A stretch of DNA of 11,023 nt from Nitrospinota bacterium (GTDB taxonomy: Bacteria > UBA8248): the NCBI GenBank assembly GCA_030754595.1, contig JASLZZ010000136.1, positions 1-11,023 on the forward strand, written 5' to 3'. The position numbers and the translations under genes are program-made. Positions 1,522 through 9,583 of the stretch are shown here, in pieces. The notes under the pieces were generated by a model that did not search any database, was not told where the DNA came from, and saw nothing but the letters and a program-made list of their open reading frames with translations. The first letter of the stretch is position 1; every line of letters begins with the position of its first letter.

Positions 1522-2733
1522 TCATTTTTTTTCTGGCAGCCGGACCGCCACCAGCATCGCCGACCAGGTGACCACCCCATAGAAGAAAAAACTCACGTCC
1601 AGATTATAGCGCTCCGCCAGCCACCCTCCCGCCAGGGGAGCGATAAAATTCAGGCCACGCATGGTGTAAATCACGCCAACGGAGGAGGCAAGCACCTCGG
1701 GCTCGCAAAGGTCGGCCGTCGCCGTAAGGATGATGGGGCTCACGAAGCTGAACACCCCCGCCACCATCGAGATCAAAATCAGGGCGGTATCCCATTTCGC
1801 GAACGGGACGGCCACGGTCAGCGCCCCGGCCCCGAGAAGAGGCGCCATCAGCGCGGCCCGCGCGCCCCAACGGGAATACAAGTAGCCCATGAGCGGTTTC
1901 GAAACCGCCCCGGCCGCGAAGTATAGAGAAACGGCCAATCCGATGGCCGCCGTATCCATCCCCAGTTTTTTCGAGGCAATTAAGGGCAGGAACCCAATCA
2001 TCCCCTTGTATCCGATTCCCTGAAGCATGTAGGTCAGCGCAAGAAGAATGACATTTCTGTTCCGGAAGACGCGGACCAGCATCGACCGAACACCCTCCTC
2101 CTTGTGCGGTGCGGCTGCCCCGGCCGATTTCCCGTGAAAACGAACCCCCACCATCGGCAGCAGGGCCAGCGCGGGAACCGCGCAGGCGGCAACGGCAATT
2201 CTCCAGTTCGCCACGGCGGCGATGGCCGCCTGAAGAAGCGGCATGAGACTCGTCCCGATATTGCCGCCGAGTCCGTGATAGGAGATGGCGAACGAGCGGT
2301 GCGTCGAAAATCGCTCGGCGGCGAGTGCCGTGCCGCAGGGGTGGTAGGTGGAGTTTCCCGCTCCGGCCAGGAAAGAGAGCACGAGCAGAGAGGCGAAGCT
2401 ATGCATCCAGCCCATCATGACAAACGACACGGCGGACAGGCCCAACCCGGCGATGACTATCGCCTTTTTGCGGCCCGTGTAATCGGCCAGAATGGAGAGA
2501 GGATATAAAAACAGAAATGTCGCCAGGCTGAACGTGCTGAGCAACGTTCCGGCTTCGACGGTCGAGAGACCCAGGTCGGCCACGATAAGCGCCAGGACCG
2601 GAACGAGCATGTTCGAGAAGCCGTCGCTCAGTCCATGGGCCGAACCGATCAGGGTCAGATCGAAATAATCTCGCCGCCCCCAGGGAGCGGGCCCCCGCGG
2701 GGCGGAAGGAATCTCGCCTCTGCCCGCCGTCAT
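1522..2733 (-). CDS. Major facilitator superfamily transporter (Fsr-like)
   Basis: About 12 hydrophobic segments; motif A-like LADYTGRK and LYSRWGAR; GAGNSTYHP; GWLAERY. Start placed at ATG 2733, overlapping the upstream stop (ATGA). Confidence 0.9.
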   Translation of the reverse strand: MTAGRGEIPSAPRGPAPWGRRDYFDLTLIGSAHGLSDGFSNMLVPVLALIVADLGLSTVEAGTLLSTFSLATFLFLYPLSILADYTGRKKAIVIAGLGLSAVSFVMMGWMHSFASLLVLSFLAGAGNSTYHPCGTALAAERFSTHRSFAISYHGLGGNIGTSLMPLLQAAIAAVANWRIAVAACAVPALALLPMVGVRFHGKSAGAAAPHKEEGVRSMLVRVFRNRNVILLALTYMLQGIGYKGMIGFLPLIASKKLGMDTAAIGLAVSLYFAAGAVSKPLMGYLYSRWGARAALMAPLLGAGALTVAVPFAKWDTALILISMVAGVFSFVSPIILTATADLCEPEVLASSVGVIYTMRGLNFIAPLAGGWLAERYNLDVSFFFYGVVTWSAMLVAVRLPEKK

Positions 2734-3737
2734 CCCAAGTCGCGCCAGGCCGGGAGAAGACCGAAACCGTCCGCCTCGACGACGGCGCGGCATATGGCGC
2801 GGGCGAGAGCCACCTGGGCCGCCGCGCCGACCACATCGAGGGATTCTTTTTTATCCCCGCGCGATACGGCGAATACGACATCCCCGTCCACAGTGGTGTA
2901 GGAGGGCCGCACGGTTTTGATCAGACCGTTCGCCGCCATTTGCGAGAGCTTCTGGGTTTCGGGTTTCGTCAGTTGAACGTCGGTCGCGACAACACCGAGC
3001 GTGGTGTTCTCCCCCGGGTCGGAAAACCCCTCGTGGAGGCGGCCCCGGGTGCGGAGGTAGTGAGTCGTATCGACGATACCTCCCTCGGGCGCCTCGCCGC
3101 GCGGACCGGCGAGCGCAATGCCGGTACCGGGATCGTGCACTCCGCCATAGGCATTCACCGCCGCCACGGAGCCCACGACACCGCCTCTGGGCAGTTGCAC
3201 GCTGGCCGTCCCGAACCCGCCTTTCATCGCCCGCTCCCGGCCCAGGAGTTTGCCCACCGTAGCGCCTGTGCCCGCGCCGACGCTTCCCTGGGGGCCTTCC
3301 CGGTCCACAGCGGCTTCGCAGGCGGCGCGGCCCATGCCAGCATCGGGCCGAACATCCCCCCCTCCCGAAGCGAGATCGAACAAGACCGCGGCGGCCACTG
3401 TCGGCACCCTGTAGCCGGCCGCCGGAAATCCCCTGCCCTGCTCCTCGAGATAACGCATCACACCGTCCGCCGAGGCAAGGCCAAAAGCGCTTCCCCCCGT
3501 CAGGACGACGGCATCCAGGTTCCCGACCAGGTGCTCGGGGCGGAGAGCGTCGAGCCCCCGGGTGGCGGTCGCCGTCCCCCGAAGCTCGCAGGCGCCCACT
3601 GCGCCGGGAGGGCATATCACCACGCTGAGGCCGGTCAGAGCCTCCCGGTTCTGGGCGTGGCCCAGCAAAAATCCGGGAACGTCGGTGATGCAGCCGGACA
3701 GGTCGGGCGGCCTGTCCCGGTGAGAGGCCTCTTCCAT
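2730..3737 (-). CDS. Peptidase family S58 / P1 (DmpA/ArgJ-like self-cleaving Ntn-type hydrolase)
   Basis: ITDVPGFLLGH, LTGGSAFGLASADGVM, AAVLFDL, GSVGAGTGATVGK, KGGFG, AVNAYG, ENTTLGVVATD (autocleavage site) and DGDVVFAVS. ATG 3737 overlaps the upstream stop (TGATG). Confidence 0.92.
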   Translation of the reverse strand: MEEASHRDRPPDLSGCITDVPGFLLGHAQNREALTGLSVVICPPGAVGACELRGTATATRGLDALRPEHLVGNLDAVVLTGGSAFGLASADGVMRYLEEQGRGFPAAGYRVPTVAAAVLFDLASGGGDVRPDAGMGRAACEAAVDREGPQGSVGAGTGATVGKLLGRERAMKGGFGTASVQLPRGGVVGSVAAVNAYGGVHDPGTGIALAGPRGEAPEGGIVDTTHYLRTRGRLHEGFSDPGENTTLGVVATDVQLTKPETQKLSQMAANGLIKTVRPSYTTVDGDVVFAVSRGDKKESLDVVGAAAQVALARAICRAVVEADGFGLLPAWRDLG

Positions 3738-4390
3738 CAAAACTGAGGCAGCCCCTGAGAAGCCTGCGTGGGCAACTCGCCGTTTTCGAGAATATGATTA
3801 ATCACGAAGCGGTAATTCTCCCTCGGAACGGCGCCGACGAGCATGGCCTCATCGTTCACGACCACGGTGGGAATTCCCGTCACACCCCGATTGATCGCCT
3901 CGGTGTACTCCCTGACCGCCTGGTCGCGGTGGAACTCGCTCGCCACCTCGTCGCGGAACAGGTCCACGTCGAGATCGCTCTTTTCGGCTACGTCGGAAAG
4001 AACCTCGAGCTGAGTAATATCCCGGCTATTGGTGAAAATAGCCGCCAGGAGGTTCATGTGAAAGGCATCCCACATTTCGGGCCCCTGGGCGCGGGCGGCC
4101 AAACCCGCCTGAGCCGAAGGCATCGAGCAGATGGGGTAGTCCCCGCCGCCTTCCCACATACGGTAGTCGCCCGATTCGGGCTGGTCGTTGCACCGCTCCC
4201 AATTGCTCCGGCGGTAGTCGTTAAATACGGCTGTGGGGTCGGGCTCGGAACGGAGCATGAATACCCGAGGCTCGAGAATCACCTTGTCCCCGTATTCTTC
4301 CTTGATCATCTTCAGGCGCACGGCCGAGTTAAAACACCAGGGTCACAAAAAATCGCTATAGACAGTCAGCTTTACGGAATCCTGCTCCAT
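3737..4390 (-). CDS. DsbA/FrnE-like thioredoxin-fold oxidoreductase, probable selenoprotein (UPWC; Sec at TGA 4345-4343)
   Basis: Extending the 3737..4321 ORF upstream through one in-frame TGA gives MEQDSVKLTVYSDFL-U-PWCFNSAVRL. SD AGGGGTG precedes ATG ATG (4393/4390). C-terminal cis-Pro loop GVTGIPTVVVN and GAVP. 217 aa. Confidence 0.88.
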
Positions 4391-4400
4391 CATCGCACCC

Positions 4401-5294
4401 CTATGATCTGTTGAGTTGAAATCTCACTTTCACCGGCGTCCCCCGGCCCGCGCCGAGCTCGTCCGCCGCCCTGCCCTCGGGAAGAAAAATTTCAAGCCGG
4501 GACCAGCTGTTGAAATGTGCGCCGCACAGCCCCTTTTCCGCTTCCCGATAAAACTCGCTGAGCCCCCGGATGGTCATCCCCGCGATTTCGATGGTTGGGG
4601 TCAGCGTCCCCTCGTCCTCCCCCGCGAGGCTCTCGCCGTCCCAGAACGCCCCGGTATCGATATTCGTAATCAAATTACAGAAACGATCGACATATACCAC
4701 TTCGCCGTCGATGCCGCCTCCCGGCCGCACCTGGCAATCGGATATCTCCAGCTTCACCGGGTCATCGATTACGGGACCGAAATCCTCGGGGTCCTCCCCA
4801 ATCGATAGATAGCCCGCCACCGGGGCGAAAACATCCCTCCCGTGAAAGGTTGAGCTGATTTTCTCCAGGAAAAAATCAACCGCGCGCAAATCCCTCACCC
4901 AAAGATAAGCGGGGTCTTCGTAGATATGGGAGAAAATTCCGTTGTCCGGCCCCACGAAGAGATAGTTTTCGGTGGCCACCAGGATGCCCCGGCGATCTCC
5001 GCCAACGCCGGGGTCCACCACCGCCACATGAATCGTCCCCTTAGGAAAGTAGTGATACGCCATTGCGAGGACATCGGCGCCGACCTCGATGTTGTAGGGA
5101 TCGATTGCGTGCGAAATATCCACAATCTGGACTTCGGGGTTCACCCCGAATATGACGCCCTTCATCACCGCGACGGAATTGTCGTCGGTGCCGAAATCCG
5201 AAAGAAGCGTGATAACGCGGCGAGAGGATTCCTGCTCGTCGAGTTCCCGCCCCCCTTCGCCGTAGGGGTCCGGACGCGATTGCGCGTCGCTCAT
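4401..5294 (-). CDS. SAM hydroxide adenosyltransferase (DUF62/COG1912; fluorinase/chlorinase superfamily)
   Basis: ITLLSDFG, VAVMKGVI, IVDISHAI, FPKGTIHVAVVDPGVGGDRR, FVGPDNG and SSTFHGRDVFAPVA. ATG overlaps the mtaB stop (ATGA). Confidence 0.93.
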   Translation of the reverse strand: MSDAQSRPDPYGEGGRELDEQESSRRVITLLSDFGTDDNSVAVMKGVIFGVNPEVQIVDISHAIDPYNIEVGADVLAMAYHYFPKGTIHVAVVDPGVGGDRRGILVATENYLFVGPDNGIFSHIYEDPAYLWVRDLRAVDFFLEKISSTFHGRDVFAPVAGYLSIGEDPEDFGPVIDDPVKLEISDCQVRPGGGIDGEVVYVDRFCNLITNIDTGAFWDGESLAGEDEGTLTPTIEIAGMTIRGLSEFYREAEKGLCGAHFNSWSRLEIFLPEGRAADELGAGRGTPVKVRFQLNRS

Positions 5295-6814: not shown

Positions 6815-7000
6815 AGCCGCGCAATTTCCAAAGTGGTGAGGTCCATCAAATAAGTTTTTCAGCATTGATTTTCATGGGGTTTTCAGGCGTTTTGTCGGGT
6901 TGCCTGCTCCTTTAATTTCCGGGCGGGTCGGGCCACAATGAATATCGTTTGAATGTCCGCTACCGATTCGAGCAGACATTCCGAAAGGCGGGGGTGAACA

Positions 7001-7867
7001 TTGCGGGGATTCGACTTTGTAACTCCAACCACGGTACCGGCCGCACTCAAGGCGGCCAAAGGCAAGAAATATAAGTTCATCGCCGGCGGCACCAACTTCA
7101 TGCCCGACCTCCGGCACGATCACAGCGGCGGAATAAAGCTGGTGATCGACCTCATGCGCATCAAAACACTGAAGGGAATTTCCGCCTCCAAGGGGACAGT
7201 CAAGCTCGGCGCCCTCACAACCGTAACCGACCTCCTGAAGAGCCGCCTGATCGCCCGTGAAGCGCCTATTCTCACGGCCATGGCCGCCAAATTCGCCGGC
7301 CCCATCATCCGGAACCGGGCGACTGTCGCCGGCAACCTCATCGACGGAGGCCCGGCCGCCGACATCGTTCCTTCCCTTCTGGCCCTGAAGGCAGCCGTCA
7401 AGCTCGCCGGCCCCAAGGGAAGACGGACGGTCGCCCTCGATAAATTCCTCACCGGATACCGCACAACCGACATCAATCCGTGCGAGATCATTACGGAAGT
7501 CACTTTCCCCTCCCCCGGGAAAAACCACCTTCATGGCTTCTACAAACTCGCCCGGCGGAATGCGATGGCGATTACGGTCGTTGGCGCCGCGGTGGTGTTG
7601 AGGATGAAGGGAGACACCTGCCAGGAGGCGGGAATCTCGCTGGGCTCGGTGGCGCCCGTTCCCGTCCGATGCTACGAGGCGGAAAAGATTCTCGAGGGAG
7701 AAGCGATTACGCTCGATCTGACCCAAAAGGCCGCCGAAGCCTGCGCCGCCACCGCATCTCCAATCGACGACATCCGCGCTTCGGCCGAATACCGTCAAAT
7801 GATGTGCGAGGTCCTGCCGCGACGCCTGATATGCCAGGCGGCCGGGATTTCGATAGACCACAACTAA
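7001..7867 (+). CDS. Xanthine/CO dehydrogenase-family FAD-binding medium subunit (CoxM/CutM-like)
   Basis: FIAGGTNFM, LGALTT, IRNRATVAGNL, PAAD, EIITEV, KLARRNAMAI and PIDDIRASAEYR. TTG start with GGGGTG SD. Confidence 0.93.
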   Translation: MRGFDFVTPTTVPAALKAAKGKKYKFIAGGTNFMPDLRHDHSGGIKLVIDLMRIKTLKGISASKGTVKLGALTTVTDLLKSRLIAREAPILTAMAAKFAGPIIRNRATVAGNLIDGGPAADIVPSLLALKAAVKLAGPKGRRTVALDKFLTGYRTTDINPCEIITEVTFPSPGKNHLHGFYKLARRNAMAITVVGAAVVLRMKGDTCQEAGISLGSVAPVPVRCYEAEKILEGEAITLDLTQKAAEACAATASPIDDIRASAEYRQMMCEVLPRRLICQAAGISIDHN

Positions 7868-7906
7868 TTTACGCTTCTTACTTTTTTTCAGGAGGATAGG
7901 CCAAAA

Positions 7907-8149
7907 ATGGCAGCCGCGACCAGAAAGAAAGCAAAGGCAAAGAAAAAGGCAGCAACCAAAAAGAAAGCCGTACGCAAGAACGCCGCGAAGAAAAAAACCG
8001 CCAAGAAAAAGACAGCAAAAAAAGCGGTGAAGAAAAAAGCGGCAAAAAAGAAAGTCGCGAAGAAGAAGGTTGCAAAGAAAAAATCCGCCTCGAAATCCAA
8101 GCGGAAAAGATCGAGCGCCCGGAAATCGGCTGCCTATCGCCCGCCCGCC
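7907..8149 (+). repeat. Degenerate coding repeat (xAKKK pentapeptides)
   Basis: AAKKK TAKKK TAKK AVKKK AAKKK VAKKK VAKKK, with synonymous codons varying between units. Confidence 0.85.
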
Positions 8150-8617
8150 AAGCATTCGATCTCATTCACGGTCAACGGCGCGCAGGTCGAAACCGAGGTC
8201 TCCGCGCATACATCCTTGCTCTATCTGCTTCGCGATCTCGGCTTCACCGAGGTGAAGAACGGCTGCGAGGCCGGCGACTGCGGCGCCTGCACCATCATGC
8301 TCGACGGCGTCGCCGTCAACGCCTGCTGCATGCTGGGCGTCCAGGCAAACGGCCGGAAAATCGAAACCGTCAAGGGTATCGGCACCGTCGATAACCTCCA
8401 TCCGATCCAGGAAAAATTCATCGAACTCGGCGGCATCCAATGCGGATTCTGCACGCCAGGCATGATCGTGGCCGCTAAGGCCCTTCTGGACGATAATCCG
8501 TCGCCCACCCGCGAGGAGGTCAAGGTGGGGATATCTGGAAATCTATGCCGCTGCACGGGATATGTGAAAATAATTGACTCCATCGAAGCGGCCGCGGCCG
8601 ATATGGCTTCCAAATAA
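7907..8617 (+). CDS. 2x[2Fe-2S] small subunit (CoxS/CutS-like) with an N-terminal Lys/Ala-rich histone-H1-like extension
   Basis: FTVNG, GCEAGDCGACT, NACC, QCGFCTPG and GNLCRCTGY. SD AGGAGG at 7890-7895. The first 81 aa are low-complexity and basic. Confidence 0.93.
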   Translation: MAAATRKKAKAKKKAATKKKAVRKNAAKKKTAKKKTAKKAVKKKAAKKKVAKKKVAKKKSASKSKRKRSSARKSAAYRPPAKHSISFTVNGAQVETEVSAHTSLLYLLRDLGFTEVKNGCEAGDCGACTIMLDGVAVNACCMLGVQANGRKIETVKGIGTVDNLHPIQEKFIELGGIQCGFCTPGMIVAAKALLDDNPSPTREEVKVGISGNLCRCTGYVKIIDSIEAAAADMASK

Positions 8618-8629
8618 AGGAAGGAAAAC

Positions 8630-9583
8630 GTGACACCATCACAATCGGGCGGCGTAAAGCGCCGCAAGACTCGCGAGTTCGATTTTTCATCGGCAGAAGC
8701 CGTTCAGGAGAGCATCCGGCAAAACGATTACATCGCTGACAAGACCCTCGCGACCACCCTGTTTCTCGCCATGAAACTCGAAAAACCGCTTTTCCTCGAA
8801 GGCGAGGCCGGGGTCGGCAAGACCGAACTCGCCAAAGTGCTTGCCACGCTCCTCGACACCGAACTCATCCGCCTTCAGTGCTATGAGGGCCTCGACTCCA
8901 ACTCGGCCCTCTACGAGTGGAACTACGCCAAGCAACTGCTTCACATCAAGATGGAGGAGGGAAGCGAGGGCGACGCCAAGCAGATCGAGAAGGACATATT
9001 CTCCGAGGAATACCTCATCGAGCGTCCCCTCCTTCGCGCCCTTGTTCGTTCGAAGGAAAAACCGGCGGTCCTCCTCATCGATGAAATCGACCGCTCGGAC
9101 GAGGAGTTCGAGGCGTTCCTGCTGGAAATTCTCTCGGACTTCCAAATCACGATCCCCGAGATGGGAACGATCAAAGCCGCCCGAAATCCGGTCGTTGTCC
9201 TGACCAGCAACCGGACCCGGGAAATTCACGACGCCCTCAAGCGCCGCTGCCTCTACCTGTGGGTGGATTACCCCGCCTTCGAAAAAGAGGTCGAGATCGT
9301 TACGACCAAGGTCCCCGACGCGCCCATCAAGCTCGCCGAACAAATTTGCCGCTTCATGTGCCAGGCCCGGACGATGGATTTCTACAAGCGGCCCGGCGTC
9401 GCCGAGACCCTCGACTGGGCGCAGGCGCTGCTCGCTCTCCACAAGGACGAACTCGACGCGAATTCGGTCCGTGAGACCCTCGGCTGCATCTTGAAGTACC
9501 AGGACGATATCAAGCGCATCGAGGAAAACGGTATCGAGAGTATGGTCGCCACGGCACACCTTTCACCAGAGGTGGGGGTCTAA
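8630..9583 (+). CDS. coxD: MoxR-family AAA+ ATPase, CoxD-like
   Basis: Walker A GEAGVGKT; IRLQCYEGLD...LYEWNYAKQLL; Walker B VLLIDEIDRSDEEFEAFLLE; TSNRTREIHDALKRRC; KRPGVAETLDWA. GTG start with AAGGAAGGA SD. Confidence 0.93.
   Translation: MTPSQSGGVKRRKTREFDFSSAEAVQESIRQNDYIADKTLATTLFLAMKLEKPLFLEGEAGVGKTELAKVLATLLDTELIRLQCYEGLDSNSALYEWNYAKQLLHIKMEEGSEGDAKQIEKDIFSEEYLIERPLLRALVRSKEKPAVLLIDEIDRSDEEFEAFLLEILSDFQITIPEMGTIKAARNPVVVLTSNRTREIHDALKRRCLYLWVDYPAFEKEVEIVTTKVPDAPIKLAEQICRFMCQARTMDFYKRPGVAETLDWAQALLALHKDELDANSVRETLGCILKYQDDIKRIEENGIESMVATAHLSPEVGV

Follow-up and report, generated by a model that had tools for sequence, protein, structure and literature searches.

In the contig JASLZZ010000136.1 of a Nitrospinota bacterium (assembly GCA_030754595.1), whose whole stretch of 11,023 nucleotides (nt) is called the window here, a gene on the minus strand (3737..4393) carries an in-frame TGA at 4345..4343, and we are highly confident that this TGA is a genuine selenocysteine (Sec, U) codon of a cytoplasmic FrnE/DsbA-like oxidoreductase with the active-site motif U17-P-W-C20. 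A preliminary description of the window, made from its letters, had proposed that the TGA is recoded as Sec, and the proposal is now supported by the same TGA in 49 of 49 orthologous loci, the pairing of Sec with Cys among homologues, the Sec machinery of the genome, the constraint at the RNA level on codons downstream of the TGA, and a fold in which Sec is placed at the N-terminus of helix alpha-1. The frame from the ATG at 4393 reads MMEQDSVKLTVYSDFL, the TGA, and then PWCFNSAVRLKMIKEEYG…, and is open to the terminal TGA at 3739..3737; its 5' codons are ATG ATG GAG CAG GAT TCC GTA AAG CTG ACT GTC TAT AGC GAT TTT TTG TGA CCC TGG TGT. The features of the gene are as follows:

3737..4393, minus strand: selenoprotein gene for an FrnE/DsbA-like thiol(selenol)-disulfide oxidoreductase, as read here; 218 codons, one of them for Sec, followed by the terminal TGA.
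4391..4393, minus strand: start codon ATG, 7 nt past the TAG stop of the upstream gene (TAG 4403..4401); a second ATG is at 4388-4390.
4343..4345, minus strand: in-frame TGA at residue 17, read as Sec; a fixed codon in orthologues, Cys in homologues.
4334..4345, minus strand: active-site motif U-P-W-C (U17-P18-W19-C20), at the N-terminus of helix alpha-1.
4312..4327, minus strand: hairpin resembling a Sec insertion sequence (SECIS), at nt 19-34 counted from the U of UGA.
4307..4327, minus strand: seven codons, S23-M29 (nt 19-39 from the U of UGA), in which synonymous variation is suppressed.
3737..4321, minus strand: truncated open reading frame (ORF) under translation table 11, with a GTG start and 194 amino acids (aa), the form that standard callers report.
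3737..3739, minus strand: terminal TGA stop, which overlaps the ATG (3737..3735) of an S58 peptidase gene as TGATG.

The extension of the frame upstream through the TGA was thus read just as in the preliminary description, and so was the lack of a CxxC motif in the called ORF; indeed, the 194-aa ORF has no cysteines other than residues 68 and 89 (numbered in the full frame). The gene had also been described as having its own Shine-Dalgarno sequence and a start just past the stop of the upstream DUF62 gene. The start is indeed there, but the G-rich run GGGGTG, located 5-10 nt upstream of the ATG, is a modest match to a Shine-Dalgarno sequence only.

When all 51 genomes of the phylum were searched in six frames, a high-scoring orthologue (E ≤ 4e-53) with an in-frame TGA was hit in 48 genomes from 15 genera, and only a distant paralogue without the TGA was hit in G005, G006, and G008. 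Direct reading of the codon covered 49 loci in 47 genomes; a further locus (L052 in G009) was excluded because its frame leaves the end of the contig. TGA was found at the identical codon in all 49 loci, always in the context TGACC, with protein identities to the window protein from 96% down to 43%. Upstream of the TGA, T-V-Y-S-D-F-L is kept in 42-49 of the 49 loci (consensus, …VRFTVYSDFL), and the codons for these residues vary synonymously; for example, Val is encoded by GTG in 24, GTC in 11, GTA in 6, and GTT in 5. As the amino acids of the ten upstream codons are kept while the codons vary synonymously, this region is translated in the same frame. Also, PWCFNSAVRL is conserved downstream of the TGA, an ATG is present 14-18 codons upstream of it in 46 of the 49 loci, and the frame is terminated with TGA in 26, TAG in 14, and TAA in 9 of the orthologues. 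The presence of the TGA in every one of the 49 loci is more than chance and is not an assembly error, therefore, and to judge from these alignments, the TGA in this FrnE/DsbA-like gene is not a lesion. A TGA confined to the present strain, which the preliminary description had associated with a simple nonsense mutation, is hence refuted. Five of the loci (L047-L051), which belong to class-level relatives (G001-G004 and G007), were further observed to have a Cys residue before Sec (…YHDY-C-U-PWC…), giving C-U-x-x-C, and to have His at the position equivalent to Cys89, which is in FPNCSMPS in the window's family.

Contigs from three DNA runs of three studies, one of which may be the window's own source sample, cover 4343-4345 and have no variant letter; instead of the TGT or TGC that would have refuted the preliminary description, TGA is found. 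The contig of run X14 comes from a different strain with four differences elsewhere, and the TGA position is unchanged. The runs holding the stretch are marine or seawater metagenomes.

It would hence be extremely improbable that the TGA is a plain nonsense codon, by which the gene becomes a pseudogene or is expressed just as the GTG-initiated product of 194 residues without CxxC. Callers using table 11 yield exactly this ORF, public databases carry it, and the SECIS-like hairpin described below is weak, all of which would fit such a nonsense codon; however, the TGA is fixed in all loci across protein identities of 43-96%, the 13-16 codons upstream of it are under purifying selection in the same frame, and U-P-W-C is invariant. 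In addition, the truncated product of 194 aa would begin too late in the thioredoxin fold to include strand beta-1 and would miss seven residues at the start of helix alpha-1.

Sec is paired with Cys in the homologues. A word-indexed protein search gave 47 homologues, 42 of which are 152-197 aa long, and none of the 13 of these that were aligned begins before the residue just past the active site; those of 190-197 aa begin at the same residue as the table-11 ORF. Truncation by standard annotation, as predicted in the preliminary description, is therefore what the databases hold. Five more distant but full-length homologues (P0044-48; 28-33% identity, 204-212 aa) read VYSDFL-C-PWC, and closer Cys forms were obtained by an exhaustive HMMER search, in which the top 150 cluster representatives were considered: namely, P0051 (42% identity, LTVYSDVLCPWCYNGAVRL), P0052, and P0057. 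These Cys homologues, which are metagenomic, are similar in length to the window protein (203-216 aa) and share the active-site block VYSD(F/Y/V)L-C-PWC(Y/F)N(x)AVRL, but have TGY (Cys) for TGA and are hence annotated at full length. The TGA is accordingly located at the position of the nucleophilic Cys, as had been stated, given that full-length homologues of 28-42% identity have Cys there. Among the 150 representatives, 34 are full-length single-domain proteins with an N-terminal CxxC-like motif and Cys in the column of the TGA, and 21 begin at MRL or VRL, which is the same false start as that of the window ORF; the latter, judged from their protein records, are probably further Sec forms. 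One representative, P0156, reads …SDFL-W-P… at the Sec/Cys position, and this Trp may be a TGA that was translated by the gene caller under another code. As a separate observation, 67 of the 150 (e.g., P0053, P0054, and P0060) are proteins of 300-1200 aa with 3-10 tandem DsbA-like matched stretches, and P0054 has four CPFC motifs at intervals of about 190 residues.

These Cys homologues also bear upon another explanation, in which the TGA ends a separate leader peptide or regulatory upstream ORF made up of the preceding 16 codons, and translation is re-initiated at the GTG 21 nt downstream. A GTG start is indeed present shortly past the TGA, and the nucleotides in between are conserved; nonetheless, the stretch from the TGA to the GTG encodes P-W-C-F-N-S-A, which aligns residue-for-residue with CPWC[YF]N[AGS]A of the Cys homologues, and the supposed leader aligns with their strand beta-1. 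We thus regard a leader peptide as hardly credible.

The read-through product of 218 residues matches PF01323 (DSBA) with 68.9 bits (6.7e-19; cut-off, 25.6) and also PF13743, while no NCBIfam model is above its cut-off, the best being that of the Rcas_1661 (seleno)lipoprotein family with 41 bits against 190. An alignment (A3) of 27 read-through orthologues and Cys homologues, in which U/C17-P18-W19-C20 is invariant, was used for an AlphaFold model, which was confident (predicted local distance difference test, 90.7; predicted template modelling score, 0.87). In this model, residue 17 is placed between the strand 7-13 and the helix 18-37, i.e., at the canonical CxxC position of the thioredoxin fold, and a helical insertion is found at residues 56-168 between strands of that fold. 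As to sequence, 5cnw (E = 2.3e-5), an FrnE structure from Deinococcus radiodurans, is the closest entry in PDB, and a Foldseek search against PDB placed five FrnE entries on top (template modelling scores of 0.75-0.78, with 0.77-0.78 for 5cp1/5cnw; E about 1e-10), which were followed by SCO1869, YjbH, kappa-class glutathione S-transferase, cytosolic DsbM, and then periplasmic DsbAs. Only six polar residues (MMEQDS) precede strand beta-1, which starts at residue 7 of the model, and there is therefore no space for a signal peptide; as was also suggested in the preliminary description, the protein is most likely located in the cytoplasm. A periplasmic DsbA of the E. coli type was considered as the identity of the protein and ruled out, since the signal peptide is missing and the motif is UPWC instead of CPHC.

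FrnE (5cnw, 5cp1, 5co3, 5coh, and 5xwh) is itself a cytoplasmic protein of the DsbA family and shares with the window protein the context …SD(I/F)xCPWC… as well as the lack of a signal peptide. The identity between the two is, however, 18-19% only, and FrnE has Cys but not Sec. FrnE is furthermore about 40 residues longer, whereas the window protein ends with …GELPTQASQGLPQF, a tail without Cys; the C-terminal tail of FrnE presumably has extra cysteines, one of which is pointed to by the entry of the C239S mutant (5cp1).

The genome (138 contigs, 96.9% complete) is equipped with the machinery for Sec; namely, selA, selB, selC, and selD, whose absence would have told against the preliminary description, are all present. 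The tRNA for Sec scored 73.6 bits and was called by ARAGORN as tRNA-SeC with the anticodon TCA, SelA scored 495.8 bits, and SelB of 639 residues is encoded on the same contig as SelA, neither of the two having an internal stop. SelD (345 bits; C16:24543-25505, L012) contains Sec itself (…KAGG-U-GSKLGPEDL…), and the sequence after its TGA folds with -11.7 kcal/mol into a 6-pair hairpin and a second small stem. SelA was found in 49 of the 51 genomes of the phylum, the two without it being 67% and 79% complete; SelA is nearly universal in the phylum, therefore, and its co-occurrence with the gene could not discriminate between the explanations. Four other PF01323 genes of the genome also have TGA at the CxxC position (UPYC, CYV-U-PYA, UPWA, and UPHC).

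It is also conceivable that the UGA is decoded but not as Sec, through near-cognate suppression with Trp or Cys or through a reassigned code (table 4 or 25). A C after the UGA makes for leaky termination, and the orthologues all have TGACC; P0156 has W at this position, which is probably an artefact of the gene caller. TGA is, however, an ordinary stop elsewhere: it ends five of the seven other long ORFs checked in the window and is internal in none. Moreover, SelA and SelB are free of internal stops and the Sec system is complete, the position corresponds to the catalytic Cys of the homologues, and Trp at position 17 would abolish catalysis. Exchange between Sec and Cys is a known pattern according to an earlier metagenomic survey (PMC1088965, Table 3). 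Non-Sec decoding is hence very unlikely in our estimation, and Sec remains by far the preferred identity of residue 17.

Downstream of the TGA, a short element resembling a SECIS was found. Of 150 seven-codon windows compared in the 49 orthologues, that of S23-M29 is the least diverse synonymously, and 100,000 random column sets yielded no value as low. In this stretch, Ala is encoded by GCC in 48 of 48 loci, Val by GTG in 42 of 49, and Leu by CTG in 44 of 49, while codon choice on either side is free; such suppressed synonymous variation indicates, at the level of sequence comparison, a constraint on the RNA. The hairpin of the window, UCGGC[CGUGC]GCC-U-GA, has five pairs (3 + 2) and one bulged U, and its loop (nt 24-28) holds G25-U26. 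Minimum-free-energy folding of nt 13-42 gave a hairpin centred on this loop in about 34 of 39 distinct sequences, and divergent clades retain the hairpin by linked synonymous changes (UCG…CGC to UCC…CGG or UCA…CGG-UUG). Indeed, the clade with UCC-GCC-GUG-CGG-CUG-G has seven pairs and the loop GUGC, and that with UCA-GCC-GUU-CGG-UUG-A has a perfect stem of seven pairs and the loop GUUC; the hairpins of the divergent clades have -5.9 to -8.6 kcal/mol, and 1-13% of synonymous recodings are at least as stable. As controls, we used SelD and the four PF01323 genes with TGA, all of which had been found without any hairpin criterion, and all five have a GC hairpin of 5-7 pairs with a G-first triloop at nt 21-27, with which the window loop agrees in position and G-U content. 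The stem-loop lying right after the UGA, with a G in the small apical loop, furthermore agrees with the wording of PMC1088965 for such elements.

The textbook bacterial element, the SECIS of E. coli fdhF, likewise lies inside the coding sequence right 3' of the UGA; it is a hairpin whose stem has a bulged U and whose apical loop holds G-U at a distance of about 23-26 nt from the UGA. Next to it, the hairpin predicted in the window is a far shorter and weaker one (3 + 2 pairs), with the bulged U on the 3' side. It was also noticed that the false start GTG of the truncated ORF (4319-4321, minus strand) is nothing but G25-U26-G27 of the loop, and this double use of the GTG explains many database entries that begin at VRLK or MRLK.

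Several results, nonetheless, weigh against reading this hairpin as a functional SECIS. Its stability is just -3.6 kcal/mol, whereas far more stable hairpins (-9 to -12 kcal/mol) are present in the other Sec genes of the genome, and synonymous recodings equal or surpass it in 46% of cases with the codon usage of the gene itself, or in 40% with that of all orthologues. For the 81 nt that follow the TGA, folding showed no advantage over shuffles (z = +1.2), and RNAalifold with the 49 sequences misses the hairpin and instead gives a different 4-pair helix of -1.87 kcal/mol without covariation. No single pairing register suits every clade: a continuous register of seven pairs was rejected because of a C·C mismatch in 30 of 39 rows, and a helix between upstream GGUGY and GCGCC was rejected because it has no two-sided change and breaks in 10 and 7 rows. 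Of the three fixed registers, the bulged one alone beats shuffles, and does so modestly, with 92.3% of the positions paired and one pair (G-C to A-U) changed on both sides in four cells. A loose hairpin filter, which the window hairpin passes, was also passed by about 7.1% of ordinary stops (terminal TGAs, 116 of 1629; TAA/TAG, 156 of 2211) and by 8.3% of random positions (249 of 3000). Rfam at gathering scores gave no match in the whole window, and a permissive Rfam scan of 4230-4400 gave chance-level matches to snoRNA and lncRNA only. Also, the sole contig from an RNA library (run X19) spans 3750-4066 and is short of the TGA. Given the weak stability, the strong constraint on codons, and the matching position, the element is thus supported mainly by sequence constraint and position and not by thermodynamics.

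Based on the Sec reading, the following reaction would be proposed. The short hairpin 19-34 nt downstream, with G25-U26 in its loop, would recruit SelB·GTP·Sec-tRNA(Sec) to UGA-17, at which Sec would be inserted in place of termination, and the second UGA (3739..3737) is taken as the real stop. The selenolate of U17 might then attack a disulfide or another oxidised thiol of the substrate to form a selenenyl-sulfide, as we infer from the family, and Cys20 would resolve it, with the Se-S bond being re-reduced by a cellular reductant. Incorporation of Se, binding of SelB to the hairpin, the substrate, and the direction of the redox reaction are thus all proposed from sequence, fold, and family. 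Advantages of Sec over Cys are a lower pKa, a higher nucleophilicity, and resistance to irreversible over-oxidation.

Selenoproteins of the DsbA type have been in print since 2005, when Zhang, Fomenko & Gladyshev used the Sargasso Sea metagenome to introduce 15 selenoprotein families, one of which was "DsbA-like protein, COG2761, UXXC, 9 sequences" (PMC1088965), and the preliminary description was hence correct in that such bacterial selenoproteins exist. Furthermore, a survey of bacteria in 2006 has a DsbA-like selenoprotein family in Anaeromyxobacter, Desulfovibrio, and Desulfotomaculum (PMC1794560), and a review in 2026 has "DsbA-like protein form 1, PF01323, UxxC" (PMC13188914). A supplement to BSepDB, which lists species but no gene families, counts Nitrospinota among the Sec-using taxa (PMC13326102). 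When the literature was searched in full text for selenoproteins or selenocysteine of Nitrospina and for FrnE with selenocysteine, no description of the present protein was found.

Form 1 (PMC1088965 and PMC13188914) and the window protein are alike in PF01323, in UxxC, in the replacement of the first Cys with Sec, and in the SECIS-type hairpin directly downstream with a G in a small apical loop; homologues with Cys are widespread. This likeness is one of family, motif, and hairpin, and the published examples AACY01178397 and NIP15863.1 may belong to the sub-clade of the window protein or to another. Unlike form 1 as published, the window protein is fixed with Sec in 48 of the 51 genomes of its phylum and has a conserved gene order and an unusually short hairpin. 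Since DsbA-like UxxC selenoproteins were already known, therefore, the window gene extends a known type of selenoprotein and leaves our knowledge of Sec decoding and of DsbA-like selenoproteins unchanged. What it adds is a well-supported case in which a Sec enzyme is fixed in almost all genomes of a phylum, here in an organism whose selenoproteome is large, and this bears on the demand for selenium in marine nitrite oxidisers. In the public records, the protein is nearly always given as a "DsbA family protein" of 190-197 residues without the active site, and no NCBIfam model rescues it; because of this mis-annotation, functional inference and metaproteomic searches of these marine bacteria miss the catalytic peptide.

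Tentatively, and with considerable doubt about the picture as a whole, the protein might further be a lineage-defining Sec enzyme, never reverted, of a phylum of marine nitrite oxidisers (probably Nitrospinota), locked in the gene string MtaB / S-adenosylmethionine (SAM) hydrolase / DsbA(Sec) / S58 peptidase / major facilitator superfamily (MFS) transporter, and decoded via a minimal SECIS (3 + 2 pairs with a GUG-centred loop) that SelB would read through its sequence and not its stability. With 20 or more other selenoprotein genes, selenium would then be a significant trace requirement for oceanic nitrite oxidation.

The genes on both sides of the selenoprotein gene are as follows:

4401..5294, minus strand: upstream neighbour, SAM hydroxide adenosyltransferase or (R)-SAM hydrolase-like protein (former DUF62, with N- and C-terminal SAM_HAT domains; PF01887, 6.5e-53, and PF20257).
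2730..3737, minus strand: downstream neighbour, peptidase of family S58 (DmpA-like; PF03576, 6.3e-38).

Two other ORFs of the window, 6872-8155 (minus strand, 427 aa) and 8687-9559 (minus strand, 290 aa), have no match in Pfam or NCBIfam at E ≤ 0.001. In all 29 loci at the family level, the order MtaB-like methylthiotransferase, SAM hydrolase, DsbA(Sec), S58 peptidase, and MFS is kept, and the SAM hydrolase and the S58 peptidase are directly adjacent to the selenoprotein gene; the MFS transporter adjoins in 27 of the 29, a count limited by the length of the flanks. Terminator-like sites were found at neither gene junction, their counts being no higher than those in shuffles, and the overlap of the terminal TGA with the ATG of the S58 gene (TGATG) suggests translational coupling.

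The genome as a whole appears to be rich in Sec. A crude genome-wide scan for TGA with a hairpin gave 155 candidates, which are mostly noise of GC-rich frames, and 20 of them were picked by hand for a Pfam search (loci L079-L097). Matches to families known for selenoproteins were obtained with 14 of the 20: three are UGSC proteins (PF24696), eight are CMD/AhpD-like with CxxU (PF02627), one is an AhpC/TSA-Redoxin protein with UPWC, and two are GrdB-like with UPLC. Three of the 20 gave no Pfam family match, L086 (ACSH-U-YAHN) has none at 1e-5 despite its CMD-like CxxU context, and two were discarded because their Pfam matches (LysE and rotamase) are unrelated to the TGA. Going by these candidate genes, the organism is Sec-rich and has a large selenoproteome. 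The four PF01323 paralogues with TGA in this genome (G000) are located as follows:

C92:16953-17507, plus strand: TGA-containing PF01323 paralogue L072.
C56:78882-79337, minus strand: TGA-containing PF01323 paralogue L073.
C114:31303-31782, plus strand: TGA-containing PF01323 paralogue L075.
C43:20118-20561, plus strand: TGA-containing PF01323 paralogue L076, with UPHC.

Two of these four are without the resolving Cys, and the UPHC paralogue on C43, which has a hydrophobic stretch at the N-terminus, is probably periplasmic.

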